IMG/VR virus record: IMGVR_UViG_3300020733_000013
Coordinates: 11,891-75,890 of that record
Direction: 5' to 3' (one strand)
DNA: 64,000 nt
Origin: a virus
Part shown: in pieces, positions 10,253-64,000 of the stretch
How positions within the stretch are numbered: position 1 is the first letter of the stretch
Layout: every line of letters begins with the position of its first letter
Translations under genes and position numbers: made by a program
The notes under the pieces: generated by a model
Told to the model about the DNA's origin: nothing
Databases searched by the model: none
The model's input: the letters and a program-made list of their open reading frames with translations, nothing else

Positions 10253-11440
10253 ATGAGAGCAAGTGAGTTCATTGTTGAGTATAAGCAATATCCTCTGGAA
10301 GAGTTTGAGGGTATCAATATGAAACTTAAAGTAGACAACCATGAGTTGATTCTGCAGGCTCTTGACGACTGGGGTAACAAAGTACTAGGTCATGTTAGAA
10401 TGAACATAGGCGATGGTAGTGAACTAGACCCTCAAGATTTACAAGTTGACGAACGTTATAGAGGTCAGGGCATAGCAAAGGTAATGTATGATTACCTTAA
10501 GTCTAAAGGTTATGAAATACATCGTAGTCCTGACCAAACAGATGACGGTAAACATTTTTGGGACAAGAACCGCGGTGAAGAAGGTAATGTTTGGGAAGAT
10601 GTTTTCGGTTCAAAAGCACCAAAGAAATTTGAACCTCTGGAAGAGTTTGAGGAAAATAATCTAAAACTAGAACCCGAACCGTATGAAGGTTGGACTGGCG
10701 AAGGTATTATTATTCGTGCGTATTTGAGTGACAAAGAAGTAGGGCATGTAATCTTTGAACCTACAGAAGATGATGAAACACAATGGTATGCAGTTGATGT
10801 TGAAGTAGATGACAACTATCAGCGTAAAGGTATTGCTACATCTATGTATAACTTGGCTAAGAATATTGCTAAAAAGCGTGGTATAATTATTGTTCGTAGT
10901 CATGCACAAAGTCAAGCCGGTCAAGGTCTTTGGCAAGATAAAAAAGTTTGGGAAGATGTACCTAAACCTGGACCAAGTTCAGGAGCGCCAAAGCAATTTG
11001 GACCTGACGCAAAGATAGAAACTCGCCAAATGACTGTAAAGCAATTAATCTCGTCAGTACCAGGCTTGCCCTACTACAACAATGTAGTTGATGATTGGGA
11101 TGCTAAGGACTATAGTTGGGGAGTTACTAAGAAGGTAATAGAATACGCAACTTATCTAAAAGAACATCCAGAGAGTTTGTCAAAGTTGCCACCCATAATA
11201 GTATTGAACGGCAAGTTTGAAGATGGCGCACATAGAGTGTCTGCTATATGGTTGCTACAACAAAGAATGGATCCTAAAAATCCACTGTGGTCAAATGCCA
11301 AACTAAATGTTCAATTCGTTACTCAAAATATCAACGAATCATTTCTAATATTGGTGAGAAAAATGGTTTCTTTGGTAAGAAACACACAGATGAACAACGA
11401 CAAAGAAAAAGAACCGAAAAACTTTTATCCCCTAAAATAA
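10253..11440 (+). CDS. Putative head-cargo polyprotein: GNAT + GNAT + ParB-like domain
   Basis: Leader MRASEFIVE; acetyl-CoA motifs VDERYRGQGIA and VDDNYQRKGIA; ParB-like PPIIV...DGAHRVSA; linkers VWED, VWED, INES. Confidence 0.75.
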   Translation: MRASEFIVEYKQYPLEEFEGINMKLKVDNHELILQALDDWGNKVLGHVRMNIGDGSELDPQDLQVDERYRGQGIAKVMYDYLKSKGYEIHRSPDQTDDGKHFWDKNRGEEGNVWEDVFGSKAPKKFEPLEEFEENNLKLEPEPYEGWTGEGIIIRAYLSDKEVGHVIFEPTEDDETQWYAVDVEVDDNYQRKGIATSMYNLAKNIAKKRGIIIVRSHAQSQAGQGLWQDKKVWEDVPKPGPSSGAPKQFGPDAKIETRQMTVKQLISSVPGLPYYNNVVDDWDAKDYSWGVTKKVIEYATYLKEHPESLSKLPPIIVLNGKFEDGAHRVSAIWLLQQRMDPKNPLWSNAKLNVQFVTQNINESFLILVRKMVSLVRNTQMNNDKEKEPKNFYPLK

Positions 11441-41244: not shown

Positions 41245-41582
41245 TGGCACAAAGTTCAGCATATCAATTGTTGCCACAAACAGCATACAAACAAGTTTCA
41301 CAAGTGATTGGTGATAAAGTTCCTGCCGCCGCATATTATATCAAGCAAAACAATATGCAGACATTCACATGGAATCTTACAACATTTACCGGTCTATTAC
41401 AAATTCAAGCAACACTAGCAGATAATCCAGGCAATGGTGACTGGTTCACTATCTATAACCTATCAGGTAATCAATTAACTCAAACTAGCTTTACTAATAT
41501 ATCTGGTAACTTTGTTTGGGTTCGTGCTGTAATCAATAACTTTGGTTTTGGTGTTGTTCAAAGTGTTAAGGTTAGCTATTAA
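41244..41582 (+). CDS. Small beta-sandwich-like virion protein
   Basis: IQATLA..P...DWF...GNFVWVRA; TAATG coupling. Confidence 0.6.
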   Translation: MAQSSAYQLLPQTAYKQVSQVIGDKVPAAAYYIKQNNMQTFTWNLTTFTGLLQIQATLADNPGNGDWFTIYNLSGNQLTQTSFTNISGNFVWVRAVINNFGFGVVQSVKVSY

Positions 41583-44500
41583 TGAAAATTGCCGCACTAT
41601 TAGAAAGTAAACAACCATTGATGGAAGGTGGTAATTTAAGTGTGGGCAAACATGAAGCAGAACACTTAGATTTGAAAGTTACAAAACGTAGCTACATGGT
41701 TCCCAAACTCAATGAACTATTAAACGCAATCAATAAAGCATTCAATGTAAAACACAAGGCTCCATTATGGAGTAGTGAATTATTGTCAAGCGGTAAGTTT
41801 TTGAGTGGTAGTAGTTTACATTTCTTTGATGTTGCGGGTATCAGTGATGATACATTCTTTGCTAAGAAGCCAACTGTAGGTGATATTGATACCATGGTTG
41901 ACAAACGTTTGGAATTCATTTTACAAGAATTCTTAACAAGTGCAACAAATAAACAAATTGGTCCTGCAAAATTGCTAGGATTTCAAAAAGGTAACGAACA
42001 ATATTCTGCATTGTTTGAGTTACAAGACCCACCCGTAAAAGTACAAATTGACTTTGAATTTGTTTCTTTTGAGAATGGAATGCCTAGCGACTGGGCAAGA
42101 TTTAGTCATAGCAGTTCATGGGATGATATCCAACAAGGTGTTAAGGGTGTATTTCATAAGTGGTTGATTCAATCATTGACTACACTAACCAACAAGCAAT
42201 TCCTGTTACGTAAAATGATCGGTCGTGGTGCAATGCGTAAAGAAGAGGACATCCCTACAACAGACAACATGTATAGTTTTGCCGTGTCTAGTAAAGAAGG
42301 TGGCGGATTACGTGCTAAGTACGAACCAGTATTAAATCCTAACACAAACAAACCATTAGTGATTAAGGGTTTGCCTGTAATGAAAGCAGCACCTGCAGCT
42401 GGATACGAACAAAACATTGGTAAGATTTTTTCAACTATACTAGGCAAACGTCTTGACCCTAAACAAATGCAAGCTATCTCTAATAACTTCTGGTCATTCA
42501 CTGGGTTAGTACAGTTGATGGGTAAGATATTATCACCAGAAGATAAACAAACAGTATTGCTCGGTTTCTTAAACAAAACAATCGGTAAAGGTAGTCAAGG
42601 TCTTTACAAGAACAATCCAGAAAAAGATATCAGTGAAAAAACAACAGCAATCAATTATCTAGTTAAAACATTAGGACTACAATTGCCACCTGAGTTCAAT
42701 CAAATGATGGCTGACTATAGAAAAAACTATAAGATGACTGAACTATCAGAAGCAGGTCCTAACTATAAGCGTCAAGGTATCCCACACATTTACAAGCCTG
42801 GCTCAACAGTTGAATTGAAAGATAATGAGTTCATTGAGTTATGTAAAGAAATCATGGCTGATGGTGGTAAACTTGAAGGTGTACCAATCAACTTGAAAGT
42901 TGATGGTGCAGGCATCAGATTTGGTAAAGACCAAAATGGTCGTCCATTCTTTATGACAAGTAAAGTTACAGAACCTAAATACATTGAGAATTTTGGTGAC
43001 TTTGAAAAGTATGGTCGTAGTGTTGGACAAGACGAAGAACGATTGAACTTTACTAAGCAATATGACAATGCATTAAAGACAATATTGACTGCTCCATTTA
43101 TGAAAGTTATCCCTAGTGATACTATCGTACAAGCAGAAATGATGTATACTCCAATGGCTCAACAAGAGAATGGCGGCTTGAAGTTTGTTAACATCCCTTA
43201 TGATCCTAAAAAGTTGGGTAAAGAGATGACTCTTGTACCATTCATGTTCAAACAGTTTAGCACTGGACAAGTTCGTCCTGACAGTCAAAAGATTAAAGAA
43301 GCACTATTAAAAACAAGCAATAGTAAAATTAAAATGGTTAACAACAACTTGCAACATAAAGGTATTGATGTTGCTAAGATTGTTAGTCCTATTGTTAAAA
43401 ACGCAGATACATTAAGTGCTGCGGTTGCTACTCGTGGAACAAATCCTACAAAAGAAAAAGCAAAAGCTATCTTGTCTCAAGCTAGACAACAACTAAGCAA
43501 TGCTATTATCAATGGACCTATTCCAGGTAAAGATCAATTGGGTGACATGATTGAAGGTCTTGTTATCAATATGCCTAGTGGTTTACTAGCTAAAGTAACA
43601 AGCACAGACATGGCAAACAAGATGGCTACTAAAATGGCTGCTCGTCAACCAGTCAAAGGTAATCAACGCCCTGCTGTAGTTGCTGTGGGCAGTGCGATTG
43701 GGCATGTAGGACATCAACAATTATTCAACCATGCAATCGCTCTAGCAAAACAAGTTGGTGGTCAACCTTACATGTTTATAGGACCTGCAGAAGGTAAAGA
43801 TGATCCTATTCCACCAAGTGTTAAAGTTGAAACATGGCATAAGTTATACCCACAACTAGCGAGTAACATATCAACTGTTAGTCATGAGGGCGGTACATTA
43901 CTACAGAAAATCAAACATGAGTTGATTAATCCTCAACCAGGTAAACCACCAAGATATGATACAATTTATATTGTTGTTGGTAGTGATAGACATGACATGG
44001 CTGAAAGTTGGAGCAAATCTCTAATGAAAGCAGTTAACAAGTTCCCTGGATATGAAGGTGTTAAAGTTGTTCCACATGTAACGTCACGTGATAAGAATGA
44101 AGGTGGTACAGGTATAAGCGGAACATTACTACGTAGTGTTTTATCAGACAAAACAAAAACTCCAGAACAGCAATTTGAAGTTTGGAATCATGCTTACAAT
44201 AGTGGTAACTATGGTGCTCAGAAACTACCGGCAGAGTGGATTCAGCACTTAATGAATATTGCTCGTAAGGGTATGGGAATGCAAACTATGAATGAGTCAA
44301 GAATCTTTAATCCAAAGTCATTAGTTAATGTATATTATGTTTCCCCTAATGGCAATCGTCATAAGTTAGCAAAAAGCATTCCGTATGATTTAGTTGAGAA
44401 ACTATTACATGCATTGAAAGTTAAAAAGAACATTGACATTCACATGGATGATGTTGAAGTTCGTCCTGCTGATCCCTCACAATATACAGTGAGCACCAGT

Positions 44501-45733
44501 CAGTTTGATGAAGGTTCAGAAGAAGCATTACAATATGCAACTAAAGCACATGCTGGGCAAACTCGTTCAGGTGGTGATCCATATATCAGTCACCCAGTTC
44601 GTGTAGCTAATCATATCAAGCAATTTAAAAAATCACATAACCTAGATGCATTAATTAGTGCAGCATACTTACATGATACAATTGAAGATACTGACACAAC
44701 ACAAGAAATCTTACACGATTTGTTTGGCGGATTAGTTGCTAGTCTTGTAATGGAACTTACAAGCGATCCAGAACAAATTAAAAAGATAGGTAAGGCTCAA
44801 TATCTAGCACACAAAATGGCTGCAATGAGTAGCTATGCACTAGTTATCAAACTTGCTGATAGATTAGATAATGTCAAAGATATCACTACTGCTAAGACTC
44901 CTGAATGGAGACACAAATATGCAACTGAAACTAATCACATCTTAGATTACATTGAAAAGCATCGTGCTTTGTCAGGTACCCATACTAAATTGATTGATAT
45001 GATTCGTGCTAAGTTGGCTGAGATTGACCAACCACAGCAAGATGTGGCGGAAGGCAAGAACATGCCAGACTTAGAACATGTTGGCGAAAGAGTAGTATCT
45101 GTTATGGATGCTGAACGCAGACTTGCCCATGGAGATAGAATATTTGCGTTCCACGAAATGGATGAAGAGCCGTTTGAGATTCACAATGTCGGTGAGTTGG
45201 CAGGATATGATACTGAACAGTTATTGGCAGTACCACAAAGTGTAGCGGAAGAAGCAGACGAACAAAAAAGCTCAAATGTCTTTCAATCTATGGGTAGTCA
45301 ATTAATTGCTATGGGTAATGATGCTGATAAAATTAAAAGGCATGACCCATCAGTTATTGAAAAAGCAATTGATGCTAAATTAGAAAAAATCAATGATCCA
45401 AAACTTACACATGTTACGAAATCCTTTTTGAGTAAAGTTGTTAAGTTCAATAGAAGTAATCCAAAAACAATGGCAGCAATATTTGGATTTACCTTCTCTA
45501 TTATTGCTAGAGTATCAATGCAATTTAGTCATAATATGGGACTTAGTCCAACACAAGCAACATTACTAATAGAAGCATTATTGCCTACATTGGGTAATTT
45601 CTTGGGTTACATTGTCAATGGGTTTAGTGTAAAAGACAGTGTACAAGCTGGATTGATTGCTGGAACAATTGGCGTCGGCGGCACCTTGGCTGCAAGCGGT
45701 GCATTGTCTGAAGATTATTTAGACGAAAAATAA
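41582..45733 (+). CDS. Multi-enzyme putative head-cargo polyprotein (nucleotidyltransferase-like; KxDG ligase-like; HxGH cytidylyltransferase-like; RelA/SpoT HD hydrolase; small cassettes)
   Basis: LSGSS...GDIDTMVD; INLKVDGAG...EGLVI; AIGHVGH...VVGSDR...ISGTLLR; HAGQTR..GDPYISHP..LHDTIEDT..IKLADRLDN; linkers LMEG, LSEA, MNES, FDEG, VAEG, VAEE, LSED. Confidence 0.8.
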   Translation: MKIAALLESKQPLMEGGNLSVGKHEAEHLDLKVTKRSYMVPKLNELLNAINKAFNVKHKAPLWSSELLSSGKFLSGSSLHFFDVAGISDDTFFAKKPTVGDIDTMVDKRLEFILQEFLTSATNKQIGPAKLLGFQKGNEQYSALFELQDPPVKVQIDFEFVSFENGMPSDWARFSHSSSWDDIQQGVKGVFHKWLIQSLTTLTNKQFLLRKMIGRGAMRKEEDIPTTDNMYSFAVSSKEGGGLRAKYEPVLNPNTNKPLVIKGLPVMKAAPAAGYEQNIGKIFSTILGKRLDPKQMQAISNNFWSFTGLVQLMGKILSPEDKQTVLLGFLNKTIGKGSQGLYKNNPEKDISEKTTAINYLVKTLGLQLPPEFNQMMADYRKNYKMTELSEAGPNYKRQGIPHIYKPGSTVELKDNEFIELCKEIMADGGKLEGVPINLKVDGAGIRFGKDQNGRPFFMTSKVTEPKYIENFGDFEKYGRSVGQDEERLNFTKQYDNALKTILTAPFMKVIPSDTIVQAEMMYTPMAQQENGGLKFVNIPYDPKKLGKEMTLVPFMFKQFSTGQVRPDSQKIKEALLKTSNSKIKMVNNNLQHKGIDVAKIVSPIVKNADTLSAAVATRGTNPTKEKAKAILSQARQQLSNAIINGPIPGKDQLGDMIEGLVINMPSGLLAKVTSTDMANKMATKMAARQPVKGNQRPAVVAVGSAIGHVGHQQLFNHAIALAKQVGGQPYMFIGPAEGKDDPIPPSVKVETWHKLYPQLASNISTVSHEGGTLLQKIKHELINPQPGKPPRYDTIYIVVGSDRHDMAESWSKSLMKAVNKFPGYEGVKVVPHVTSRDKNEGGTGISGTLLRSVLSDKTKTPEQQFEVWNHAYNSGNYGAQKLPAEWIQHLMNIARKGMGMQTMNESRIFNPKSLVNVYYVSPNGNRHKLAKSIPYDLVEKLLHALKVKKNIDIHMDDVEVRPADPSQYTVSTSQFDEGSEEALQYATKAHAGQTRSGGDPYISHPVRVANHIKQFKKSHNLDALISAAYLHDTIEDTDTTQEILHDLFGGLVASLVMELTSDPEQIKKIGKAQYLAHKMAAMSSYALVIKLADRLDNVKDITTAKTPEWRHKYATETNHILDYIEKHRALSGTHTKLIDMIRAKLAEIDQPQQDVAEGKNMPDLEHVGERVVSVMDAERRLAHGDRIFAFHEMDEEPFEIHNVGELAGYDTEQLLAVPQSVAEEADEQKSSNVFQSMGSQLIAMGNDADKIKRHDPSVIEKAIDAKLEKINDPKLTHVTKSFLSKVVKFNRSNPKTMAAIFGFTFSIIARVSMQFSHNMGLSPTQATLLIEALLPTLGNFLGYIVNGFSVKDSVQAGLIAGTIGVGGTLAASGALSEDYLDEK
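45038..45252 (+). repeat. Two degenerate copies of the QGVAEG repeat inside the 1383-aa gene
   Basis: CAAGATGTGGCGGAAGG at 45038-45054 (1 mismatch in 17) and CAAAGTGTAGCGGAAGA at 45236-45252; period 198 nt. Confidence 0.8.
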
Positions 45734-52872: not shown

Positions 52873-54474
52873 ATGACAACAAGAATAAAAATCAGACGAG
52901 ATTCATCTAGTAATTGGAGCACAGTTAATCCAATATTAGCCTTAGGAGAACTAGGACTAGACACTACTCTTAATAAGTTAAAAGTAGGTGATGGCACCAC
53001 TCATTGGACTAGTTTAAATTTTATTCACGATGGTGCTGATACCGGTGATATCAGTTTCAATGGTACATGGATACACAACACAGGTTCGGGCAATATCTAT
53101 ATTAGTCCGCAAGACGGTAACACATGGTTATATTTACCAAGTGACAGTCAAGCTGGTAGTGAGACGGTTGACTTAGCAAACGTTGATGACAACGGAGTAG
53201 TTACTATCAGAACCAATAGTCATGTATGGTCATTTGATAGTACAGGTAAATTAAATGTCCCTCAAAATGCAGGCATAGACGTTAACTGGGCAAGTGATAC
53301 TGCAGGTAGTGGTAGTGATGGACACTATGATTCTGCAAGAATTAATAATGACCATGCAAATGGATTATACATCACAAACACAATGGATGGTACTCCTAGT
53401 ACTTGGTTGTTTGGTAAAGAAGGCAATCTAACACTACCCTCAAATTCTAGTGCAATTAACTATGCGAATGGCACAAGCATTTTAAGTGGGTTAGGTGTTA
53501 ATAGTATTGATGGTGGTTTAGCTGACAATAGTGTTGGAATCACAATAACTACATATACTCTCGCTACTGACACAGGTGGATATGACAACAGTGGTTCAGT
53601 AACATACAACATTGCTAGTGAAGGTGCATTAACAGCCGGAGTATTTATAAAAGGTCTTACAGTAGGTCATACACAAACAATAACCGGTGACTATAATCAA
53701 GGTGACAATACTGTATCTTGGGGTCAGAGTGGTATAGATTACGAATTGTGGGAACAAGTAGCATCAGTGACAGCGTTTGTTACCGATAGTAGAGGTTACA
53801 CATTCTATACAGTAGTACAAGATTCATGGGATGTTCCGCATGGTCCTTGTTTAGTTGAAGGCACTCAGATTACAATGGCTGATGGCTCACACAAAGCTAT
53901 TGAAGATATTCAACATGGTGAACTAGTTCGTGTATGGAACTTTGACTTAGGTGAATTCAGTGAAGCACAACCAATATGGATCAAAGTTGCAGAAGAAACA
54001 ACTGGACACGATGTTTATACATTCAGTGACGGTACAAAACTACGCACAGTTGGACATCATGTGTTTAACAAAGAAGCTGGTAAGTTTACTAAGTTGAAAT
54101 ACAAAGATACTCCAATCGGAACTACAACGTTCAATGAGAAGGGTGAAGAAGTTACACTATTAAGTAAAGAGCGTGTAACAGAACCAACTCGTTATTACAA
54201 CGTATGGACTCAATACCACTTGAACTTGTTTGCTGATGGTATATTAACAAGTAACAGATTCAACAACACATACCCAATCGTTGACATGAAGTTTGTCAAA
54301 GATGATAGAAAACTAAGAGATATCAGTGAGTTTGCTGGTATTGATGAGAAATATATCAGTGGATTAAGATTACAAGAACAATCACAAGAATACACTGCTC
54401 AATATATCAGTGATTACGTTCACAATAGATTAGAGCGTTTAGATATCGCTAATCAAAAAACACAGGAAGTATAA
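52873..54474 (+). CDS. Fibre protein: Mtd-N-like domain plus C-terminal Hint domain
   Basis: IKIRRD..NW...NPILALGELGLDT..KLKVGDG...W..L; CLVEGTQITMADGSHKAIEDI...YNV...FADGILTSN. Confidence 0.8.
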   Translation: MTTRIKIRRDSSSNWSTVNPILALGELGLDTTLNKLKVGDGTTHWTSLNFIHDGADTGDISFNGTWIHNTGSGNIYISPQDGNTWLYLPSDSQAGSETVDLANVDDNGVVTIRTNSHVWSFDSTGKLNVPQNAGIDVNWASDTAGSGSDGHYDSARINNDHANGLYITNTMDGTPSTWLFGKEGNLTLPSNSSAINYANGTSILSGLGVNSIDGGLADNSVGITITTYTLATDTGGYDNSGSVTYNIASEGALTAGVFIKGLTVGHTQTITGDYNQGDNTVSWGQSGIDYELWEQVASVTAFVTDSRGYTFYTVVQDSWDVPHGPCLVEGTQITMADGSHKAIEDIQHGELVRVWNFDLGEFSEAQPIWIKVAEETTGHDVYTFSDGTKLRTVGHHVFNKEAGKFTKLKYKDTPIGTTTFNEKGEEVTLLSKERVTEPTRYYNVWTQYHLNLFADGILTSNRFNNTYPIVDMKFVKDDRKLRDISEFAGIDEKYISGLRLQEQSQEYTAQYISDYVHNRLERLDIANQKTQEV

Positions 54475-54476
54475 GA

Positions 54477-57400
54477 ATGTCAACAATTCAAATTAGAAAA
54501 GATACATCAGATAATTGGGCAGCAGCCAATCCAACACTTGCATTAGGTGAGTTAGGTTTAGATACAACACATAATCAAATTAAAGCAGGTGACGGTGTTA
54601 CAGCATGGGATAGTTTACCCTATCTTAAAGGAGATACAGGTAACATAACATTTAGTGGCGGCGAACTTAACAATTCGACAGGTGGAGATATAGCTATTAC
54701 ACCAAGCGAAGGTAACACAGCTTTAATCTTACCCGGTGATACTAACTCTAACGCAGGCGAACCTACATTCCTTCAGAATACAGGATCTGGTGGTATTGTA
54801 CTATCTACTGGTCAAGGTAATTTAAATATTGGTAATGCTGATGGTCCCACACAACCAACACATTTACATATTAGACAAGACAATCCAGCAAACGTTAATT
54901 TATTCTTAGGTGATGACAATCAATTTGTTAAATTAGCAACTGATGGTACAACAGTTGTTCAAGCAAGAATAGGTTCAGAAGCACAAGCAATAGTTAGTGG
55001 TGCACCTATTGGAATAACATATTCTACTCAAATTACATATATCACTAGAGCAACACCTGCAGTAGTAACGGTTGCTGATACTAGTGGATTAAGTGCAGGT
55101 GTAACAGTTTATTTGCATGAAATCACACAAACAGATTGGATTTCTTTGAGGGATACCTCCTACTATGTAGGTTCAGTAATTGATGGCACTACTTTTAATT
55201 TGTACACTGATTCTGGACTAACAACGCCTCTAAATACCACAGCAATAAATTCTGAATGGGGTGGCGGTGATCCACAAGCAGACGGAAATGCTGTATTATT
55301 GTCAAACCCCGGTGAAGCATATATAATTGCCGGCTTTGATAGTACTAACATTACTAATGGATGGGGTAATTCTTATATAGGCGGCGGCAATGTCACTATT
55401 GAAACAACAAATGGGTTGTTTACATTTGATAGTACCGGTGCTCTTAATTTAGAAGCATACGGTGTCATTCGCAATGGCGGTGAAGGATCAGTTAATATTG
55501 TTGGTAGTAATTTTGCTCAACTACAATGGACTGTTGATGGTATTAATACACCAAATCCAAACTATGATTCAAACGTTTATAATTGGTTGTATGTAGATGA
55601 ATATGGTACACACATTGGTGGTAGCACAAACTATGGATGGGACTTTAATACAAACGGTGTACTAAATGCACCTGCTCTAGGTGAAGTTATTGCTACACAT
55701 GAGTTCAACATCACTGCTAGAGACTATCAACACGAAGGCACTACATTTGTTAATGTATTAAATCCTGCAGAAGTTCAAAACCCAGCAGACAATCAACCTT
55801 TCTACATCAAAGGTGTACAATATTTAAATAACGGTGATATCGTTGTAATTGGTGAAAGTTATGGTTTTAATACAGCATTTGTAAAAAGAATACATAGCAG
55901 TAACACTAGTGGTTACGCAGGAAATACAGTTTGGTCTTATCAACTATCAGGTAGCCCATATGGTTATGGATTAACAACTGACGCTAGTAATAATGTCTAT
56001 ATTACACTACAAAGCAATAATGATAGCTATGTTTTAAAATTAGACAGTAACGGCAATAAAGTATGGGAAACAAAAATTCACGGAACTAGCAAGACTGTAA
56101 ATGGCTTTAATTTAGATTACAACCAGAATGGATCAATAAGTCTTGTTGGTGTAATTAATAGTGGTGGAAACGACCAAAGTTTTATTGCTCAACTTGATTG
56201 TGTTACTGGTGCTGTTAATTGGGAAAAATCTATCAGTGGTGCTGGATATGAAGATAGTTTTGGTATAGGTTGTGATAGTGCAGGTAATACACTAATTGTT
56301 GGTAATACACAAGATTCAAATCCAACTAAAGTATTTTTAGCATTGTTTGATATTAATGGTACTTTAACTTGGCAAAAATACTGGGGTAATGGAATTAATA
56401 TAAACAGTGCATTGCAAGGTGCCGATGTTTGCATTGACAGTTCAGGTAACTGGTATGTTTATACAACATGGAACAATGAGTCTATTAGTGTAGGTGTTAC
56501 AAAAATTGATTCTAGTGGTACTATTATCTGGAGTAAAGGCTTACAAGGTACATGTGAAGATTGGGCAGCAAGTATTGCAGTAGATAGTAGTGATAACCTA
56601 TATATCTATGGTACTATGACTAACCTTAATGGTATGTTTGACCAACAAACTTTCATAGGTGTAATGAGCCCAGCTGGATCATTACTGCATCAACATTACT
56701 TTGGTAAGAGAGGTAATTTTAATTTTCCAGGTGAAGCACCATGGGGCGATAATCCTTATTCAAATCAAGCTGGTCAAATGATTAGTGTTAATGGAACTAA
56801 CATTGTAGTAGCTGGTATGGTATCGACAGTTGGATTTGGTGATAACGCAACAGATCCAACTGAATCAATAACTGGATGGGTCGCACAAGTTCCTGCATTA
56901 TCTAATGATAGTTATAAAATTGGTGAATTTGAATTTTTAGTTTCTAATTTTAGTTTCAGTGATGTTGCTATTACCCCCGGTTCAGGTGCATTAACAATTG
57001 ATAATGCTGGATTAACAGTAACAATTAGCGGATCAGTATTTACATTACAACCTACTAATATCACATTCACAACATATCGTTTAGGTGATATGACATGGAC
57101 ATTTAGACAAGACGGTACACTCAATATGCCTTTTGGTAGCATTGGGTACATGGAATTGGGAACTAATGGCTTAGATTTGTATAGTGATATAGCTTCATGG
57201 GTTGGTCTTAACTATAACAATACCAACTGGGTAAGAGTTACTTCTGACGGTGCGTTTGTCAACACAAGCGGTGAATATCAATGGAGTTTCAACGATGATG
57301 GTTCAACAAGTTTACCAGGTAGTTTACATATCTCTCCAAACAGTGGAAATCCTATCATTGCTGCGAACAACAATAACTCATTAACAGTTGGTGCAGATTT

Positions 57401-59678
57401 AGATGTGACCGTTTCTTCAGCAAGTGGTGGTAAACAATGGGTATTTGATAGAAACGGTAAACTAACACTACCAGCTAATAGCTCAAATGACAGTGTAATA
57501 TACTCAGAAGCCGGTAACATAGAGTTATATACTAATAGGGAAAGTGGCTCTACTAAGATTCGTAACAAAGCAACACTAGACCAAACATGGACATTTAGTG
57601 ATGCTGGTTTAACATTCCCTGATACTACTACACAAACTACAGCATATACTGGACAAGTGGGCGCAGGTAATTCAGGATGGGCTTTATTATACGGTGGCAA
57701 TAAATTAGGATCAGGTGGTGAGCATGATTGGGTTGACTTTGATGGATCAGTAGTAGACGGTCAAGGTTATGTTTACTTCTTTGGTGGTACTATAGCATTT
57801 AGTCAAGGAAGCGGGGTATACAATCCTATCATTACAAAAGTAAACAGTGACGGTGGAGTAGAATGGTCTACTGTTATTCACGACTATTATGGTAAAGCGG
57901 TAGCAGCATTTTATATTGAAAGCAGCGGAGGCAACTATGTATTGTTGTACACAGATGATGAAACTGACACTACTACAACAAAACAATGGACTTATGGAGT
58001 AAATCCAGCAGACGGTTCATTATCTGAACAAAGCTACACTATTCCATCACAGTCCGGAGTTGGTGTTTGCTTGAGAGATGGTTGGGCATATACTTTGGCC
58101 GGGTCAGGTACATTAGCTATAGGTTGGGCAGGTTTCACTACAAATGAAATTGCTACAACTACATTAACTATTCTAACAGACCCTGCTCCAGATTCAACAT
58201 CATTTAGTGTGTTGAAGACTAATGTACCGGGACTAACATTATATAATTATAGTGTTTGTTTTATTGATACAATGAATACTATATCAGGTATTGATGACAA
58301 TTCAACTTATTGGACTATTCATGTAGGCACACCAGCAGACTTTACTACTGGTTCACATACTATTCAGATTCCACAAAACAGTAACGCAACTATTGGCGTT
58401 GTATACACGGGCGGCGGCGCTTGGTTGTCTGTTGGTACTGCTGGGAACACATATGAATATTATTCTAGTACCGCAGTTGATAAAACTAACGGTACTATCT
58501 ATGCAGTAGGTAATGATGATAATGGACATAGCATTGTATCTAGTTTTAGTATAAGTAGTGGACTAGTTGCAAACTGGCATAAACGAATCAATTTAAGTAC
58601 ATCATATCTTCAATTAACCGGTGTTGATGTTGATATTGGTGGCAGTGCAATTTATGTAGTTGGTGATGGTGATAACGGTTGTGGTTATATTACTAAAATG
58701 GATTCAACTGGACACATAATATGGCAAAGAAAAATTGATGACAGTGGTCAACCTTTTGGCGTCAGTGAATTAAGTGTAGCGGTGGGTACAGGTAATGAAA
58801 TTATTGTTGCTTGTGGCAGTTATGGCAGCGACTTCACACAGAATAATGCTGTTCTAATTGTTAGATTTAATTCAAACGGTGATACAGTATGGCAGCGTCA
58901 ACTTGATACCAGTTGGAGTGATTATGCAGGCGCCGGTTGGGACAGCTACGGTACCGGAACTCCAAGATTCGTATCAGCGGACGGTATCAGCTATTATCTA
59001 TCATTAGCGATTAACGGTAGTGGACCGCAAACAGACGGTGGTGGTGTTAAACTACCATTGAATGGAGAAGGCACAGGCTCATGGGGTAGCGGAGACGGCA
59101 CATGGAACTATACCAATGTATCATGGCCAATAACTTCAATTGACGTTACTGCTGATAGCACTAGTATCACTGATTTCGTAGTATCTACTCTTAGCACCAC
59201 TAGTGGTTCAGGTTCTACTCCAAGTGTGTATACTGGTATTAAACCAGCAAATACTACTATCATTGGTTCTGATGCAATTAAGGGAATTGATAGAGCCGCA
59301 GTCAGTCATGGTAACGATACTATCACACTAGATATAACACATAATGGTAAATTCATTTACTATTATACTAATACTAGCGCTGGTTATCCAACTATCATTG
59401 TACCTAATAATAATAGTGTTCAATTACCAATTGGATATACTGTTACTATGGCAGTAGATACATTCAGTTACAACGGCTCACATTATGTAGTTAACATTAA
59501 TACCAATGGTGATACTAGCAATGGATTGATTATTAATGCTAGTGGAATTATAGCAGACAGCTATACTGGTAACTATTGGGGTATCGCAGGTGACGGTAAA
59601 CCTGGTATCTATACATTAATGAAAGTAGATACTAATCGCTGGATACTAAGTGGTCCTAACGTGTTCATCAACGATTAA
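54477..59678 (+). CDS. Giant fibre/adhesin: Mtd-N-like domain plus two beta-propeller regions
   Basis: IQIRKD..NW..ANPTLALGELGLDT; repeated D.SGN.Y / K.DSSG...W.K blades; WxFxxxGxLxxP repeats. Confidence 0.8.
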   Translation: MSTIQIRKDTSDNWAAANPTLALGELGLDTTHNQIKAGDGVTAWDSLPYLKGDTGNITFSGGELNNSTGGDIAITPSEGNTALILPGDTNSNAGEPTFLQNTGSGGIVLSTGQGNLNIGNADGPTQPTHLHIRQDNPANVNLFLGDDNQFVKLATDGTTVVQARIGSEAQAIVSGAPIGITYSTQITYITRATPAVVTVADTSGLSAGVTVYLHEITQTDWISLRDTSYYVGSVIDGTTFNLYTDSGLTTPLNTTAINSEWGGGDPQADGNAVLLSNPGEAYIIAGFDSTNITNGWGNSYIGGGNVTIETTNGLFTFDSTGALNLEAYGVIRNGGEGSVNIVGSNFAQLQWTVDGINTPNPNYDSNVYNWLYVDEYGTHIGGSTNYGWDFNTNGVLNAPALGEVIATHEFNITARDYQHEGTTFVNVLNPAEVQNPADNQPFYIKGVQYLNNGDIVVIGESYGFNTAFVKRIHSSNTSGYAGNTVWSYQLSGSPYGYGLTTDASNNVYITLQSNNDSYVLKLDSNGNKVWETKIHGTSKTVNGFNLDYNQNGSISLVGVINSGGNDQSFIAQLDCVTGAVNWEKSISGAGYEDSFGIGCDSAGNTLIVGNTQDSNPTKVFLALFDINGTLTWQKYWGNGININSALQGADVCIDSSGNWYVYTTWNNESISVGVTKIDSSGTIIWSKGLQGTCEDWAASIAVDSSDNLYIYGTMTNLNGMFDQQTFIGVMSPAGSLLHQHYFGKRGNFNFPGEAPWGDNPYSNQAGQMISVNGTNIVVAGMVSTVGFGDNATDPTESITGWVAQVPALSNDSYKIGEFEFLVSNFSFSDVAITPGSGALTIDNAGLTVTISGSVFTLQPTNITFTTYRLGDMTWTFRQDGTLNMPFGSIGYMELGTNGLDLYSDIASWVGLNYNNTNWVRVTSDGAFVNTSGEYQWSFNDDGSTSLPGSLHISPNSGNPIIAANNNNSLTVGADLDVTVSSASGGKQWVFDRNGKLTLPANSSNDSVIYSEAGNIELYTNRESGSTKIRNKATLDQTWTFSDAGLTFPDTTTQTTAYTGQVGAGNSGWALLYGGNKLGSGGEHDWVDFDGSVVDGQGYVYFFGGTIAFSQGSGVYNPIITKVNSDGGVEWSTVIHDYYGKAVAAFYIESSGGNYVLLYTDDETDTTTTKQWTYGVNPADGSLSEQSYTIPSQSGVGVCLRDGWAYTLAGSGTLAIGWAGFTTNEIATTTLTILTDPAPDSTSFSVLKTNVPGLTLYNYSVCFIDTMNTISGIDDNSTYWTIHVGTPADFTTGSHTIQIPQNSNATIGVVYTGGGAWLSVGTAGNTYEYYSSTAVDKTNGTIYAVGNDDNGHSIVSSFSISSGLVANWHKRINLSTSYLQLTGVDVDIGGSAIYVVGDGDNGCGYITKMDSTGHIIWQRKIDDSGQPFGVSELSVAVGTGNEIIVACGSYGSDFTQNNAVLIVRFNSNGDTVWQRQLDTSWSDYAGAGWDSYGTGTPRFVSADGISYYLSLAINGSGPQTDGGGVKLPLNGEGTGSWGSGDGTWNYTNVSWPITSIDVTADSTSITDFVVSTLSTTSGSGSTPSVYTGIKPANTTIIGSDAIKGIDRAAVSHGNDTITLDITHNGKFIYYYTNTSAGYPTIIVPNNNSVQLPIGYTVTMAVDTFSYNGSHYVVNINTNGDTSNGLIINASGIIADSYTGNYWGIAGDGKPGIYTLMKVDTNRWILSGPNVFIND

Positions 59679-59687
59679 GGAATAAAA

Positions 59688-60383
59688 ATGTCTATACTAC
59701 AAGCAATAGTAGCAGTATCTAGCTTAGGAACAGCAGGTCCAACAAGTATTATATCCAGCGGTATATTGTTTGACCTTGACATGAAGAACTATGTATCGGG
59801 TACTGGCTGGCCAGATGCAAGTAGTAATCATAATGACTTTTCATTTACTAATACGCCAACTGTAGTTAATACCGGAACTAACACAGCATACTGGGATAAT
59901 ACTGCTGGCGTTTACGTCAACGCTCAACCCACAAGTGACTCAGCAATATTACCAAACGGTAATTATACTAAGGGCGTTTTGCTTCGCACTGACGACGGTA
60001 ATACCGGTACTGGTAACATACTTTCAAGTGTTAATGGTATAGATGTGTTCTGGACTAACGGTGGTAATATAATACAAGGTGGACATAACGGAGACTGGAG
60101 TCACGTTGTGGGTAATACTTCTATTCCTGTCAGTCAGTGGGTTTATGTTGCAGTTACCTTTGACACAACGACAGGTTGGAAACTATATCAAAACGGGGTT
60201 CTTATTGGATCTAACACTGACGCAGCCAATGTAATGGGAGCTGATAGCATACCAGACATTGCAGGCTTCACTGGTAATTATGGTTGGACAGGAAAATATG
60301 CAGCCGCACATGAGTACACAAGAGCACTATCATTAACAGAGATACAGCAAAACTACCAATATTATCTATCAAGATATAGTTAA
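59688..60383 (+). CDS. LamG/concanavalin A-like lectin domain protein
   Basis: QWVYVAVTFD...KLYQNG...YTRALS..EIQQNY. Confidence 0.85.
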   Translation: MSILQAIVAVSSLGTAGPTSIISSGILFDLDMKNYVSGTGWPDASSNHNDFSFTNTPTVVNTGTNTAYWDNTAGVYVNAQPTSDSAILPNGNYTKGVLLRTDDGNTGTGNILSSVNGIDVFWTNGGNIIQGGHNGDWSHVVGNTSIPVSQWVYVAVTFDTTTGWKLYQNGVLIGSNTDAANVMGADSIPDIAGFTGNYGWTGKYAAAHEYTRALSLTEIQQNYQYYLSRYS

Positions 60384-60973
60384 CGTATACCTTGAGTTTT
60401 TAACTTAACACAAGTATTGCACTTTCCACAGGGTGCAATACTTTTTTCGTTGTAGATTGGATGACGGCAGCTCCAAAACATATCACGTAACGGTGTAGGT
60501 AACATATCATATATCTCACGCTTAGTCATATCAAGAACAGGATAAATCTTCTCAGCACTAGTGAATGCTCTTAATATGTTATTAGCACGAATGATTCTAG
60601 CTTCAATAGTATGACTACTATCAGTTGATTGCATACCTATAGCAACTTTTTTGATATCAGGGTTGGCCATACAAACATAACCAGCAAAGAAGTTGATAGA
60701 GTCAGAGTCAAACATAAACGTATCACCGTATGGTTGTGTACCAATCAAACTATCACTATATTGAAAAGAAAATCCTAACTTCTTTAACTCACCTAATGCA
60801 AGTTTTACTGCAATAGCTTCTGCTTTATCTCGTTCTTCTACGTTCTTATTATGCACATGATGAATGTGAATATTGTAGTCTTTGTATTCATCTTCAGTGA
60901 GTAATTTGTAAACCGTGCCTAAGCTGTCTAACCCGCCTGAGTACATTGCTAGTATTGTTTGTTTTTGTTCCAT
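60380..60973 (-). CDS. QueC-like PP-loop ATPase
   Basis: MYSGGLDS PP-loop; MTKREI; WSC...CGKCNTC Zn motif. Confidence 0.7.
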   Translation of the reverse strand: MEQKQTILAMYSGGLDSLGTVYKLLTEDEYKDYNIHIHHVHNKNVEERDKAEAIAVKLALGELKKLGFSFQYSDSLIGTQPYGDTFMFDSDSINFFAGYVCMANPDIKKVAIGMQSTDSSHTIEARIIRANNILRAFTSAEKIYPVLDMTKREIYDMLPTPLRDMFWSCRHPIYNEKSIAPCGKCNTCVKLKTQGIR

Positions 60974-61404
60974 ATATAAAATGTGTAAATGTCGTTAATT
61001 TTGTGTTCGTCTGGTACTGGATTTAATTCATCAGCTTTTGGAAAATACACTGCATATCTACTTTTCCATGTGGTTCTTAGAAAAGACCTAACTATAAATC
61101 TATCACAGTTGGGTAGTATCACAGATAATAACTTCTCAGTAAACTCTTTACCAAACGCTATACCACCATCCATGATAACTGTATCAAAGTGTTCGTTCAG
61201 TTGAAACCAGTCTTTCTGCTTTATCTTAATATCAGCATATTTAGGTTCTACATCCCATGCTTCAGTACACAGGGGTAATAACAATTTAGTGCTTCCTAGC
61301 AACAACACACGACCCTGAACATATGATTCAAATACTTTATAATCATCGTTGTTGGGCGCTGCTGGCCACTGCAAATTAATCCAGAAGTCTTTGTCTGATT
61401 CCAT
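60949..61404 (-). CDS. Hypothetical protein, possible degenerate SAM-methyltransferase fold
   Basis: RVLLLGST...DW....FDTVIMDG; TATAAATA on the minus strand at 61409-61416. Confidence 0.45.
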   Translation of the reverse strand: MESDKDFWINLQWPAAPNNDDYKVFESYVQGRVLLLGSTKLLLPLCTEAWDVEPKYADIKIKQKDWFQLNEHFDTVIMDGGIAFGKEFTEKLLSVILPNCDRFIVRSFLRTTWKSRYAVYFPKADELNPVPDEHKINDIYTFYIWNKNKQY

Positions 61405-61463
61405 GCTTTATTTATAACCAAAAATTTGATAAATATAATATCGGTACTATAAGGACAATAATA

Positions 61464-62294
61464 ATGCGTATACCAAACATCAATTTAGCAAAAGCACAAA
61501 ACATCAAAGCAGCTTTCCAAGCAGCAAGTAGAGGCAAATATCACTGGGTGCGTGATACCCCGGATCCAAGAGACCAAATCTATCAATTGCAACCACTACA
61601 AACTACACCCGGTACTGTAGATTTGCGTCAATATGCAAGCCCCATTGATGACCAAGGTAATCTAGGAAGTTGTACTGGTAATGCTATTGCAGGACAGATT
61701 GATTTGATTGATAAAAAAGGTGGTAAAAATCTACGAGTTAGTCGTTTGTTCATTTATTACCAAGAACGTGTATTGGAAGGGACAACACGCTATGATTCAG
61801 GTGCTTATATCCGTGATGGTATCAAAGCATGTTATACATACGGTGCCCCATTAGAAAGTCTATGGCCTTATAATATCAACCAGTTTGCAGTTAAACCTAA
61901 TACATCAGCAACAAATGATGCATTAAATCGTAAAGTTACAGGGTATCAAAAATGTACAGATTTTAACGCAGTCAAAAATGCATTAGCAAACGGAAATCCA
62001 GTGACTATTGGATTTGACGTATATAGTAGTTTTGAGTCAGGAAACTGGTATAATACAACCGGTATCATGCCATACCCTAACACAAACAGAGAATCATTAT
62101 TAGGTGGACATGCGGTTTGTTTAGTTGGTTACAACGACAACTTAAACAATAGTGGTCATGGTTATTTCCTAGCAAGAAACAGTTGGGGAACTAGCTGGGG
62201 ATTACAGGGTTATTTCTGGATGCCATATCAAGTTATTCAGAATACTAATATGAGTAGTGACTTCTGGCTAATCTCAGCAGTGCATAATCCATAA
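61464..62294 (+). CDS. Papain-like cysteine peptidase (C1 family)
   Basis: VDLR...DQGNLGSCTGNA (Cys), GGHAV (His), RNSWGTSWG..GYF (Asn). Confidence 0.92.
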   Translation: MRIPNINLAKAQNIKAAFQAASRGKYHWVRDTPDPRDQIYQLQPLQTTPGTVDLRQYASPIDDQGNLGSCTGNAIAGQIDLIDKKGGKNLRVSRLFIYYQERVLEGTTRYDSGAYIRDGIKACYTYGAPLESLWPYNINQFAVKPNTSATNDALNRKVTGYQKCTDFNAVKNALANGNPVTIGFDVYSSFESGNWYNTTGIMPYPNTNRESLLGGHAVCLVGYNDNLNNSGHGYFLARNSWGTSWGLQGYFWMPYQVIQNTNMSSDFWLISAVHNP

Positions 62295-62344
62295 AAACAG
62301 TTCTGTTAAAAAAACGATAAATATCTAATATACGGAATTTATCT

Positions 62345-64000
62345 ATGAAAATTAATGAAACTTTCACAACCACATCAACTGATCCAGTAGGAAATCAGAG
62401 CCAACAAGCTCCTCACTTTGGTCGTTCAAACAAGGTCTTAGAAAAGAAAGACAAAGTTGAAGAAACTAGTGCAGGTGCTACAGGTTCAGGATCAATTGCT
62501 ACTGTATCAAATCCAATCGGTGGAATTAAGTCTCGTGGTAGTATTTTTTCTGGTGTAAAAACTAGCTCAAAATATCCCAACAGCAGAAAAGCTGGCATCA
62601 AAGAAAATAAAGAAGTAGAAGAAGGTCGATATTATAATCGTGATGCATATCAACGTGACTATGATTCAAGTCGTACAGGGTTTGGTCGTAGAGGTCGTGA
62701 AGACGATGAATATGTCAATGGACCAGATAAACTAACTTACAAAGTTCGTATCTTAGTGATTAACCCAGAAGGTGCTGAGGAAGATAGAACTGTAACTATC
62801 ACTACGGCAAAAGGTCCTGAATTTGCAAAAACACGTTCAATTAAACATTTAACTGACAAGGGTTATAAAATTCGTAAAGTATTTGATCCTGTAGAATCAG
62901 GATTAAATGAAGATGATGAACCTGAAGGTGAAACATTAAAAAATAGTCTTCACACTATTGTTCGTGTAGCATCAGATTTAGATGAAAGATTAAGTGTTGA
63001 TGAAGATTTTCCTGAATGGGTAAGTGAGAAAATCGGTACTGTAAAATCAATGTTGGTTAGTGTCATGGATTATTTAATCAGTGACCAAGAAATGCGTCAT
63101 GATCCTGATGCCATGAATGAAAGTGGTGGTCGTACAGTTTATGACATGGACAAAGAATATGGCGCACCTGCACAAAGACATAAGCCAGTAATTGCTCGTG
63201 GTAGTAGTTCAAGATATGATCCAGATGCAGTAGATCCTATGCACAGAGATCAACGCAGATTCCAAGCTGACCAAGATCGTTACTTGCAAGCACAGCGTGA
63301 TGCCATTGCCAAAATGAAAGCTGAAAAAGGCTTAGAAGAAGGCAGTGACGAACTATATCAAAAGGCTATTCACAAGTATGCTCAACGAGTAGCAGATGAC
63401 TACTTGGGTGGTGGCAATGAATATCTTTATGGTGCCAACAAGTTTGATAGCGAAATGTTTGGAGTAGATCCTAAACAAGCACAACAAGACTTTAAGACAT
63501 TGTTTGCTCAACTAACAAAACAACAAGGTGTGGCGGAAGGATTGGATGGCCGTGCTAGTGCTACCCCGGCAATAAACAAACGCGGAAAATTCACATCGTG
63601 GGACGAGAATGAACCTATGCGTTTGAAATGTCAAGATGGTGAGTTCAGAACCATACAAGAAATCAATGTGCTTAGACAGAAAATGGGAATGAAACCTTTT
63701 TCTATCAAAGGCGAACAAGGTGTGGCGGAAGGCTCTGAGAACTTTACAATAACACAAAAGAAAGATCAGTCATATCCCGGCTCACTTCAGGTCGTTATCA
63801 CTGATAAATCTACTGGTAAACAAAAAGTTATTGCTGGCGATCCAAGAAAAATAAAACAACAAATCAAACAAGAGTTTGGTATAGATTATAACTTTAGTCA
63901 ACAAGGTGTGGCGGAAGGCAGAGTGTTGCACCGAGATTTGAAATCTTGGACAGATGACGCAAAATCGCAAGGGTTGAATGTTATTAAACCAAAAAATGAT
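62345..64000 (+). CDS. Modular putative head-cargo polyprotein with QGVAEG repeats, 3' truncated (missing from the ORF track)
   Basis: ATG 62345 after late box 62318-62323; by my translation open to the window end (MKINETF...VEETSAG...VEEGRYY...LNEDD...MNESG...KGLEEGS...QGVAEGL...QGVAEGS...QGVAEGR...). Confidence 0.85.
   Translation, partial: MKINETFTTTSTDPVGNQSQQAPHFGRSNKVLEKKDKVEETSAGATGSGSIATVSNPIGGIKSRGSIFSGVKTSSKYPNSRKAGIKENKEVEEGRYYNRDAYQRDYDSSRTGFGRRGREDDEYVNGPDKLTYKVRILVINPEGAEEDRTVTITTAKGPEFAKTRSIKHLTDKGYKIRKVFDPVESGLNEDDEPEGETLKNSLHTIVRVASDLDERLSVDEDFPEWVSEKIGTVKSMLVSVMDYLISDQEMRHDPDAMNESGGRTVYDMDKEYGAPAQRHKPVIARGSSSRYDPDAVDPMHRDQRRFQADQDRYLQAQRDAIAKMKAEKGLEEGSDELYQKAIHKYAQRVADDYLGGGNEYLYGANKFDSEMFGVDPKQAQQDFKTLFAQLTKQQGVAEGLDGRASATPAINKRGKFTSWDENEPMRLKCQDGEFRTIQEINVLRQKMGMKPFSIKGEQGVAEGSENFTITQKKDQSYPGSLQVVITDKSTGKQKVIAGDPRKIKQQIKQEFGIDYNFSQQGVAEGRVLHRDLKSWTDDAKSQGLNVIKPKND
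63522..63918 (+). repeat. Three identical 19-nt in-frame direct repeats AACAAGGTGTGGCGGAAGG
   Basis: 63522-63540, 63714-63732, 63900-63918; periods 192 and 186 nt; intervening sequences unrelated. Confidence 0.95.

Follow-up and report, generated by a model that had tools for sequence, protein, structure and literature searches.

An in-frame, codon-locked linker as recombination joint and putative head-protease site in candidate cargo polyproteins of T4-related freshwater phages

Introduction

Why would a short nucleotide sequence be repeated without a mismatch, and always in frame, between unrelated segments of one viral protein? The question is raised by positions 11,891 to 75,890 of the virus record IMGVR_UViG_3300020733_000013 (hereafter the window, the whole 64,000-nucleotide stretch analyzed and the last 64 kb of its record), in which an open reading frame (ORF) at 62345..64000 carries three identical repeats encoding the peptide QGVAEG, here called the linker. 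An earlier note on this DNA had proposed that the repeat serves both as a recombination handle for gaining, losing or shuffling cassettes and as a protease site that frees each cassette inside the capsid. We contend, with a probability of roughly 0.6, that the ORF encodes a head-cargo polyprotein made of a leader and linker-joined modules, and that the linker is both a DNA crossover point and a site for a gp21-type prohead protease. In-frame repetition, locked codons, and breakpoints at the linker in related contigs and independent samples are the observations behind this reading.

An in-frame repeat in a mosaic gene

The 19-mer AACAAGGTGTGGCGGAAGG occurs in three mismatch-free copies at 63522, 63714 and 63900, with periods of 192 and 186 nucleotides (nt), and was matched in none of 100 dinucleotide-preserving shuffles of the window. 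Translated in the frame of ORF 62345..64000, which is still open where the window stops, each copy gives Q-G-V-A-E-G; as the window ends with the 75,890-bp record, the gene is truncated. A diverged linker, KGLEEG (AAAGGCTTAGAAGAAGGC), begins at 63326, 198 nt ahead of the first QGVAEG codon, and differs from the canonical spelling at 6 of 18 bases. The four C-terminal modules (60, 58, 56 and at least 27 amino acids (aa)) share no mutual blastp similarity at E<1. GTG accounts for 8.3% of the valine codons of the window and GCG for 5.2% of its alanine codons, which makes the spelling of the linker atypical. The earlier note had described the repeats with their periods, the upstream KGLEEG, the unrelated modules and the unusual codons, and all of these were recovered. 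The parts of the locus are as follows (pLDDT, predicted local distance difference test score of the structure model described below).

62317..62323, + strand: ATAAATA, core of a weak T4 late-promoter-like box, 21 nt before the ATG
62345..64000, + strand: candidate cargo polyprotein gene, 5' end complete and 3' end lost at the contig end; 552 codons, open frame
62345..62410, + strand: N-terminal leader region (MKINE...), with 69 other letters in its place in contigs of two other samples (joint 62346->62411, X6 and X7)
62609..62626, + strand: degenerate joint KEVEEG, preceding the RYYNRDAYQRDYDSS module; homology starts cluster at this joint
62897..62914, + strand: degenerate joint SGLNED, preceding a widespread helical module (residues 192-264); 33 database matches begin at residue 192
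63326..63343, + strand: degenerate linker KGLEEG; in an X7 contig 243 other letters replace 63342-63521
63344..63523, + strand: module 1 (SDELYQKAI..., 60 aa), found in 20 database proteins in other contexts
63524..63541, + strand: canonical linker 1, CAAGGTGTGGCGGAAGGA = QGVAEG; branch points 63522 and 63539; pLDDT below 50
63542..63715, + strand: module 2 (LDGRASATPAINK..., 58 aa), predicted to be folded (pLDDT 85-92); a unitig of its own in X6 and X11 at 2-4x backbone depth
63716..63733, + strand: canonical linker 2, CAAGGTGTGGCGGAAGGC; branch points 63713-63716 and 63735; pLDDT below 50
63734..63901, + strand: module 3 (SENFTITQKK..., 56 aa), predicted as three strands and a helix (pLDDT 86-94); another module stands in its place in L125
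63902..63919, + strand: canonical linker 3, CAAGGTGTGGCGGAAGGC; branch points 63902 and 63920
63920..64000, + strand: module 4 (RVLHRDLKSW..., truncated); the L125 version extends about 60 aa further

The ATAAATA box was found upstream of 19.5% of linker or leader ORFs, as compared with 9.0% of other ORFs. ORF 62345..64000 belongs to a mosaic network of 242 ORFs at 101 loci. Database homology to it begins and ends at KEVEEG (62609) and SGLNED (62897), and the homologues of module 1 in L104 and P0008 are preceded by canonical QGVAEG where the window has KGLEEG. A search of 5.8 billion proteins with the window ORF returned 271 matches, nearly all of which cover 12-17% of the query, i.e. one module, often at 70-99% identity; none of the 271 is colinear over the full length and none is informatively named. 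No relative of the ORF was matched by tblastn in 50,697 GenBank phage records, nor did Pfam and PHROGs searches give a match.

The spelling of the linker is locked

The exact 17-mer CAAGGTGTGGCGGAAGG is present in more than 120 IMG/VR contigs among the matches listed, between unrelated flanks, and for 164 of its 165 copies the QGVAEG frame is open over at least 60 codons. Adjacent copies are a multiple of 3 nt apart in 239 of 251 cases, with a mode of 150-240 nt, and near-complete genomes contain 3-7 copies each, all on one strand and at one to three loci. A search of 596 Gb of prokaryote genomes gave single matches, roughly as many as chance predicts and for the most part in genomes with a G+C content of 60-70%, and these offered neither a clue to the host nor a context of spacers of clustered regularly interspaced short palindromic repeats (CRISPR).

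Among the QGVAEG peptides of the fetched loci, 163 of 181 are spelled CAAGGTGTGGCGGAAGG. Because the loci had been fetched via an exact copy, Weinberg's proband correction was applied to the spelling rate, after which a QGVAEG peptide has a probability of 0.82 of carrying exactly this spelling, whereas 0.004 would be expected from the codon usage of the loci and 0.002 from that of the window. A scan in which the third positions of Val and Ala were left free, instead of the fully degenerate pattern CARGGNGTNGCNGARGG, found GTG GCG in 83 of the 120 stretches returned; about a dozen linker-like sites had GTA GCG or GTG GCA, and the remainder came from unrelated phages of high G+C content. Information content is limited to positions -3 to +19, i.e. 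(A/G)A(G/A) CAA GGT GTG GCG GAA GG(C/T) T.

As a control, 47 distinct MRAxEFxxE leaders of the same loci were inspected, which are similar in length to the linker and presumably read by the same assembly machinery. They use ordinary synonymous codons, both for Ala (GCA 30, GCC 8, GCT 8, GCG 1) and for the first Glu (GAA 29, GAG 18), the last Glu (GAA 34, GAG 13) and Phe (TTT 33, TTC 14). Given that the codons of the leaders vary, peptide function alone does not freeze codons, and an additional constraint at the level of nucleic acid must act on the linker, so that the claim of conservation on DNA and not just on peptide is upheld.

Such a constraint could also reside in translation or in the RNA, with the fixed spelling acting as a rare-codon pause, an internal ribosome-binding-like site or an RNA motif, and both the rarity of GTG and GCG in these genomes and the weak likeness of AAGG and GGAAGG in the linker to Shine-Dalgarno sequences would suit this idea. 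We regard it as very improbable, since other rare spellings (GTC, GCC) are hardly used, fixation extends equally to the preferred codons CAA, GGT and GAA, the codons of degenerate linkers are common ones, no conserved flank is able to pair with the motif, and the breakpoints described below would be left unexplained. Rfam at permissive thresholds returned no family for 61000-64000. It is one sequence that is kept and not rarity as such, and a purely translational explanation therefore fails.

Many recombination breakpoints fall on the linker

Comparison of 315 sites yielded 130 pairs that are alike on one flank only (at least 70% identity over 60 nt) and 7 that are alike on both, while the match beyond the linker on the unlike side extends over just 0-4 nt, which is the chance level. 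In a breakpoint-first test in which the linker was ignored, blastn between contigs (at least 88% identity over at least 100 nt) gave 190 distinct internal ends of homology, and 101 of these fall no more than 6 nt from a linker, where chance would place 1.2% (43-fold). The ends not at linkers are not enriched at ORF starts or stops. Ends of blastp high-scoring segment pairs (at least 60% identity) mostly lie near no linker; they are too fuzzy to serve as breakpoints, and blastn was used instead. Fourteen segments run from linker to linker and each holds exactly one module (median 238 nt), so the shared unit is the single module between two linkers.

The share of breakpoints also follows the quality of the linker. 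Considering peptide sites xG[VILM]xE[GDAS] that are touched by near-identical DNA of another contig, breakpoints were found at 64 of 74 sites with no mismatch to the core, 14 of 18 with one, 8 of 18 with two, 2 of 5 with three, 4 of 7 with four to five and 1 of 7 with six or more (Fisher p = 1.6e-6 for 0-1 against two or more mismatches). As judged from these sequence comparisons, the linker is the main recombination joint of these loci, and the recombination handle envisaged in the earlier note stands.

Related loci show the modules of the window in new arrangements. In L125, module 4 is found in a different gene behind a different module, and module 2 is joined directly to the helical module via QGMTEG and has another successor than in the window. 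P0002 matches residues 1-256 of the window ORF at 99% identity and then continues with QGLEEG and other modules; modules are likewise reordered in P0008. A strain that is about 95% identical upstream departs from the window at 63111 into a canonical linker. At 63105-63125 (residue 256/257) the window has a linker-less module boundary (..DPDA|MNESGG..), and contigs of X6 and X11 have a canonical linker there. In Logan contigs (k=31) from four independent freshwater runs, branching with differing continuations is observed at 63522/63539, 63713-63716/63735 and 63902/63920, and modules 2 and 4 form unitigs of their own, with a depth several times that of the backbone. These swaps and branches mean that cassette content differs between genomes that are otherwise 95-99% identical. 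Two joints, 63111->63900 and 63540->63897, were considered as deletions and rejected, as their sides comprise just 21-23 letters and they represent contig ends running into a linker. No backward joints, as expected of excised mini-circles, were listed in the Logan contigs, which are contigs and not raw reads.

It might be objected that the mosaic is an artefact in which assemblers joined different phages at the shared 17-21-mer, all the more since many contigs end at or near a linker and all data are short-read metagenome assemblies. However, the k-mers that determine the final contigs are longer than the shared stretch and reads are longer by far, the junctions remain in frame and recur in separate samples, branching at k=31 requires real alternative neighbours, and the same one-module mosaic is present in protein databases built by other pipelines; we thus attach hardly any weight to this objection.

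A more serious alternative concerns the agent of exchange. A dedicated sequence-specific enzyme, such as a homing-type endonuclease or an unrecognised recombinase, may act on the 17-21 bp motif, in which case the codon lock would reflect its recognition site. Taken further, this would amount to a dedicated machinery for in-frame cassette exchange, in which e.g. a homing-type nuclease or a novel recombinase makes module mini-circles, i.e. a domain-level "integron" that serves injected effectors, draws on the population-wide module pool as its library and relies on the head protease for release. The information edges at -3 and +19 are indeed sharp, the length is typical of homing-endonuclease sites, and the 86% of canonical sites touched by near-identical DNA that are breakpoints is a very high share for plain microhomology. 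Endonuclease genes are also present among the 128 loci (GIY-YIG in 9, HNH in 4), and 4-5 of them adjoin a linker ORF, at whose starts we noted L016:3241-3984, L032:7870-8589, L052:1959-2678, L099:12659-13342 and L106:5933-6517. On the other hand, endonuclease genes lie near just about 10% of the loci, and these retain intact canonical linkers, so that the enzyme would cut its own genome; besides mosaic ORFs and ordinary core genes no gene family recurs beside linkers; and a tyrosine or serine recombinase is absent from two near-complete genomes. PF00589 (tyrosine recombinase) was found in none of five related records (two of them at least 97% complete) and in all 14 control genomes, and PF00239 likewise in none of the five records. 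We therefore hold both the enzyme and the dedicated machinery to be unlikely, though not negligible.

A predicted site for the head protease

In T4, gp21 cuts after L/I-X-E (PMC9026906). The capsid targeting sequence of T4 is MKTYQEFIAE (PMC8442874); it is removed by the gp21 cut and is enough to load foreign proteins into the head (PMC8442874, PMC9026906, PMC3012670). Similar leaders are frequent here. Among linker ORFs with a complete 5' end, 45 of 97 have hydrophobic-x-E ending at residue 8-11 (e.g., MRAQEFITE, MRAHEFIVE, MKIDQLFE, MNLNNLFE), as compared with 16% of the other ORFs of the same loci, many of which are also MRAxEFIxE genes (Fisher 8e-11). ORFs related to that of the window begin MKINEFITE, MKINEIISE and MKISSLFE. 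Two further genes of the window have such leaders, the first of which carries a fourth in-frame near copy of the linker, QDVAEG, at 45038-45055:

41582..45733, + strand: second candidate cargo protein, 1383 aa, with leader MKIAALLES, cytidylyltransferase-like and HD domains, and QDVAEG
10253..11440, + strand: gene with a strong T4-like targeting leader, MRASEFIVE (leader match), and no linker

Leader and linker appear to be interchangeable in position. In some genes the leader is directly followed by the linker (MRINEILVE-QGVAEG, MRATEFIIE-GVAEG, MKTLREYINLIESAE-QGVAEG), and 21 modules that follow a linker follow a leader in homologues in the same register, as in QGVAEG|WQKVNK and MRATEFITE|DWNKVNK, the leader ending in hydrophobic-x-E in 20 of the 21. 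Because of this common register, the linker Glu occupies the position that corresponds to the Glu marking the cut in T4 leaders. Degenerate versions of the linker retain G-hydrophobic-x-E-G/D/A. In relatives that lack the canonical motif throughout 212-270 kb, ELEEG stands before the module that KEVEEG precedes in the window. These relatives (L128 and L132, i.e. G005 and G006, of 212 and 270 kb) share a module and MRLRxLFE-type leaders and have ELEEG junctions, and the canonical linker is absent from them even when up to 2 mismatches are allowed, which makes them well suited for comparison if the codon-locked joint is to be dated.

A suitable protease is encoded by relatives of the phage. The sheath protein of the window is 52-56% identical to those of three linker-bearing records of 300-343 kb (G001-G003). 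G001 and G003 encode a Peptidase_S77 (gp21-type) prohead protease (8e-25 and 4e-27), a scaffold protein and a Gp23-family capsid protein; in G004, Peptidase_S77 was not detected. In the capsid proteins of G001 and G003, L-K-E and L-A-E occur just before the segment that aligns with the N-terminal region of mature T4 gp23, which is a weak indication of a T4-like protease specificity.

An AlphaFold2 model of residues 192-525 of the window ORF, based on 75 aligned sequences, has confident small domains (pLDDT 80-94) in no fixed mutual arrangement (predicted template modelling score, pTM, 0.27). pLDDT is below 50 at canonical linkers (model residues 202-212 and 266-271); a third low stretch, 329-334, coincides with the model's terminus. 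Taken together, the targeting leaders, the positional equivalence of leader and linker, the gp21-type protease of relatives and the predicted disorder of the linkers make a protease site plausible.

Disordered linkers between folded domains are also what one would predict if the linker were just a flexible spacer in an uncut multi-domain ("polyvalent") protein, thus a joint but no protease site. In some systems, delivery of the intact chain is known for polyvalent proteins that contain GNAT, ParB_N and nucleotidyltransferase domains (PMC5512222), domain types that are represented here too. A pure spacer has, however, no need of an invariant Glu, let alone one in register with the leader-ending Glu, and the degenerate copies (KGLEEG, QGMTEG, ELEEG) retain G-hydrophobic-x-E-G/D/A even where their DNA has diverged or the canonical motif is absent, which leaves the spacer as a minor contender.

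Another conceivable processing enzyme is encoded immediately upstream:

61464..62294, + strand: papain-family gene (Peptidase_C1, Pfam 4.7e-19), judged to be outside the linker system

Papain-family enzymes favour a hydrophobic residue at P2, and this peptidase, encoded adjacent to the polyprotein gene and on the same strand, could process the polyprotein at V-A|E. No homologue was found, however, in the other approximately 128 linker loci, nor in four large related records, of which two have a completeness of at least 97%, and we rejected it as the processing enzyme, giving this route almost no credence. A Peptidase_C1 gene is in itself unusual for a phage.

The modules are diverse in kind. 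Pfam searches of 67 linker-bearing proteins identified DUF6321 (8), GP88 (6), GNAT acetyltransferases (4) and ParB_N (2), with single cases of nucleotidyltransferases, a deaminase, chitinase/LysM, NT5C and the SutA RNA-polymerase-binding domain. Foldseek searches of the AlphaFold2 model against PDB and BFVD found nothing convincing (best 0.07 and 7e-4, TM about 0.1). Considering the precedent of IPI and Alt in T4, the modules may act in anti-defence or host takeover.

Proposed mechanism and its difficulties

We propose that these genes encode a short leader and, behind it, small modules that fold independently and are connected by a standard linker, the DNA of which would act as crossover point, so that single modules can be gained, lost and swapped within and between phages. 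The agent is likely general UvsX-type recombination on 17-21 bp of identity, and a RecA/UvsX-type recombinase is encoded by all of G001-G003. Crossover between two direct-repeat linkers would remove one module, possibly as a circle, and the excised piece, or a co-infecting genome, could recombine with any other linker, by which the module would be inserted in frame. Mutated copies of the linker would be either converted back or recombinationally isolated. As exchange would be limited to identical spellings, linker copies would evolve in concert, and the rare-codon spelling (GTG GCG) may have been kept as a frozen accident; concerted evolution and the dropout of decayed copies would thereby explain both the frozen rare codons and the dose-response. 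General homologous recombination on short identity would be the simplest mechanism that fits everything, by analogy with promoter early stem-loop (PeSL) elements (PMC2839356) and with the glycine-rich gp38 motifs (PMC3157838), for both of which it has been proposed. At the protein level, G-V-A-E|G would be a hydrophobic-x-Glu site of the gp21-type prohead protease. After targeting to the prohead core, the polyprotein would be split by this protease into separate small proteins, which would remain in the head and be delivered to the host along with the DNA, as are the internal proteins of T4.

Several points weigh against this proposal. The leader of the window ORF (MKINE...) is a weak match to the leader pattern, the P3 residue of the linker is Val where T4 prefers Leu or Ile, and cleavage is predicted from sequence and a structure model, the phages being uncultured. 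The record of the window (22% complete) has no head genes. G002 (the L045 record, 342,865 bp, CheckV 99%) yielded no gp21-type protease or Gp23-family gene by Pfam or protein search; it has the same sheath type and five linker copies. With regard to recombination, 47% of homology ends lie away from linkers, and the dose-response depends on few degenerate sites and is confounded by degenerate matches that may fall within modules. An identity of 17-21 bp may be too short for efficient UvsX-type exchange in these phages, and concerted evolution is an argument and not a measurement.

Comparison with known systems

The closest parallel is with the internal proteins IPI, IPII, IPIII and Alt of T4 (PMC9026906, PMC3012670, PMC8442874), which like the linker genes have short leaders resembling MKTYQEFIAE that end in hydrophobic-x-Glu. 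Both comprise small, diverse cargo with fast turnover at variable loci, and a gp21-type protease is encoded by the relatives G001 and G003. T4 internal proteins, however, have one gene and one leader each, whereas many modules are fused here in frame with an internal standard site, and the linker site is fixed at the DNA level while the leaders here are not.

PeSL shuffling in T4-type phages (PMC2839356, PMC4122927) likewise involves short repeats that flank small nonessential cassettes, which are deleted, inserted or replaced by recombination, and its mini-circle model fits single modules between two direct-repeat linkers. As with PeSLs, the repeats coincide with the ends of indels and replacements here (101 of 190 ends and 14 single-module segments). 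In contrast, PeSLs are intergenic promoter-terminator units of roughly at least 50 bp that move whole genes, whereas the linker is a coding, in-frame sequence of 17-21 bp that moves domains within a gene; being coding, it has no intergenic early promoter with stem-loop terminator. The glycine-rich motifs of T-even gp38 (PMC3157838, citing Tetart et al. 1998) are also short coding motifs between hypervariable segments and proposed crossover sites. They form the structural core of one domain, in fixed order and in one gene, whereas the linkers here are predicted to be disordered between independent domains, are free in order, and have one spelling across unrelated genes and phages.

Polyvalent proteins (PMC5512222) resemble the linker proteins in that a single chain, predicted to accompany the DNA, combines many unrelated domains. 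Conflict-type domains of many unrelated kinds are likewise combined in the phage polypeptides studied here, with GNAT, ParB_N and Pol-beta nucleotidyltransferase common to both. Unlike polyvalent proteins, however, the 67 polyproteins have no peptidase family, zincin-like or other, among their Pfam matches, the modules are mostly tiny (50-80 aa), and a standard codon-locked joint is undescribed in that system.

The earlier note had also likened the array to an integron- or CRISPR-like library of effector cassettes. Integron cassettes are similarly promoterless units that are reshuffled at a short standard site and drawn from a large population pool, but integrase, attC-type imperfect palindrome and attI are all lacking here, the modules form an in-frame single chain, and joints are few per genome. 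The 17-mer lacks the self-complementarity of an attC, and its flanks are unconserved outside -3 to +19. CRISPR arrays consist of non-coding repeats of 28-37 bp with spacers derived from invaders. The linker, by contrast, has 17-21 bp and lies in an open frame, with "spacers" that are multiples of 3 and are predicted to fold as proteins; cas genes were not searched for. Without a tyrosine or serine recombinase in near-complete relatives, without attC- or CRISPR-like properties, and with 3-7 linkers per genome, the comparison holds as an analogy only. The library of modules is spread over the phage population and is not one array.

The phage and its neighbouring genes

The window contains T4-type genes for tail sheath, sheath stabiliser, tube, head-tail adaptor and clamp loader, its 75,890-bp record is 22% complete according to CheckV, and the sequencing runs with the sequence are freshwater, lake-water and lake-sediment metagenomes. 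As part of the cargo-polyprotein reading, and with the same confidence, the source would be a giant (about 300-340 kb), uncultured, T4-related freshwater myovirus.

Other genes of these genomes deserve mention. A Clp-type AAA+ ATPase of 756 aa (PHROG "ATP-dependent protease", 3e-235) is encoded at 38084-40354 (+) of the window and at L125:4194-6482, and in 9 loci a homologue is encoded no more than about 10 kb from linker genes. At 54477-60383 (+), just upstream of the cargo locus, a 1733-aa ORF is accompanied by a neighbour (52873..54474) with a tail-fibre-like N-terminus and by a 231-aa concanavalin/Laminin_G_3 protein, a group that probably represents host-recognition proteins. A QueC-like PP-loop gene at 60380-61404 (-) (PHROG 2.5e-18), with an overlapping 151-aa ORF on the opposite strand, hints by homology at 7-deazaguanine DNA modification in the phage. 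Upstream of the window, L180:1-1961 (G000:C1:1-1961) holds small paralogous ORFs (about 65-130 aa) with the common end motif F/L-x-L-R-W/Y-S/T/L/E, and L180 ORF 225..617 includes a segment matching the N-terminal part of the Gp23 capsid family (E 3.7e-13).

Implications for phage biology

Targeting leaders with gp21 processing, short motifs as crossover points and hypervariable cargo loci are known from T4-type phages. New is their fusion into one in-frame, codon-locked joint common to hundreds of contigs, with the protein domain as the unit of exchange and a very high share of joints recently broken. Literature searches on the linker, on capsid targeting sequences and on modular shuffling found no published description of the QGVAEG linker.

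If the proposal is true, protein-domain shuffling is standardised in these phages, in that one short sequence keeps any new module in frame, the existing leader targets it to the capsid and the existing protease releases it. This would be a natural plug-and-play diversification of injected, probably anti-defence, proteins, and would also illustrate clearly how selection or concerted evolution acts on synonymous sites in the service of recombination. The hundreds of modules of 50-80 residues would constitute a catalogue of candidate host-takeover or anti-defence proteins, and the linker joint suggests a design rule by which phage capsids might be loaded with multiple cargo proteins.

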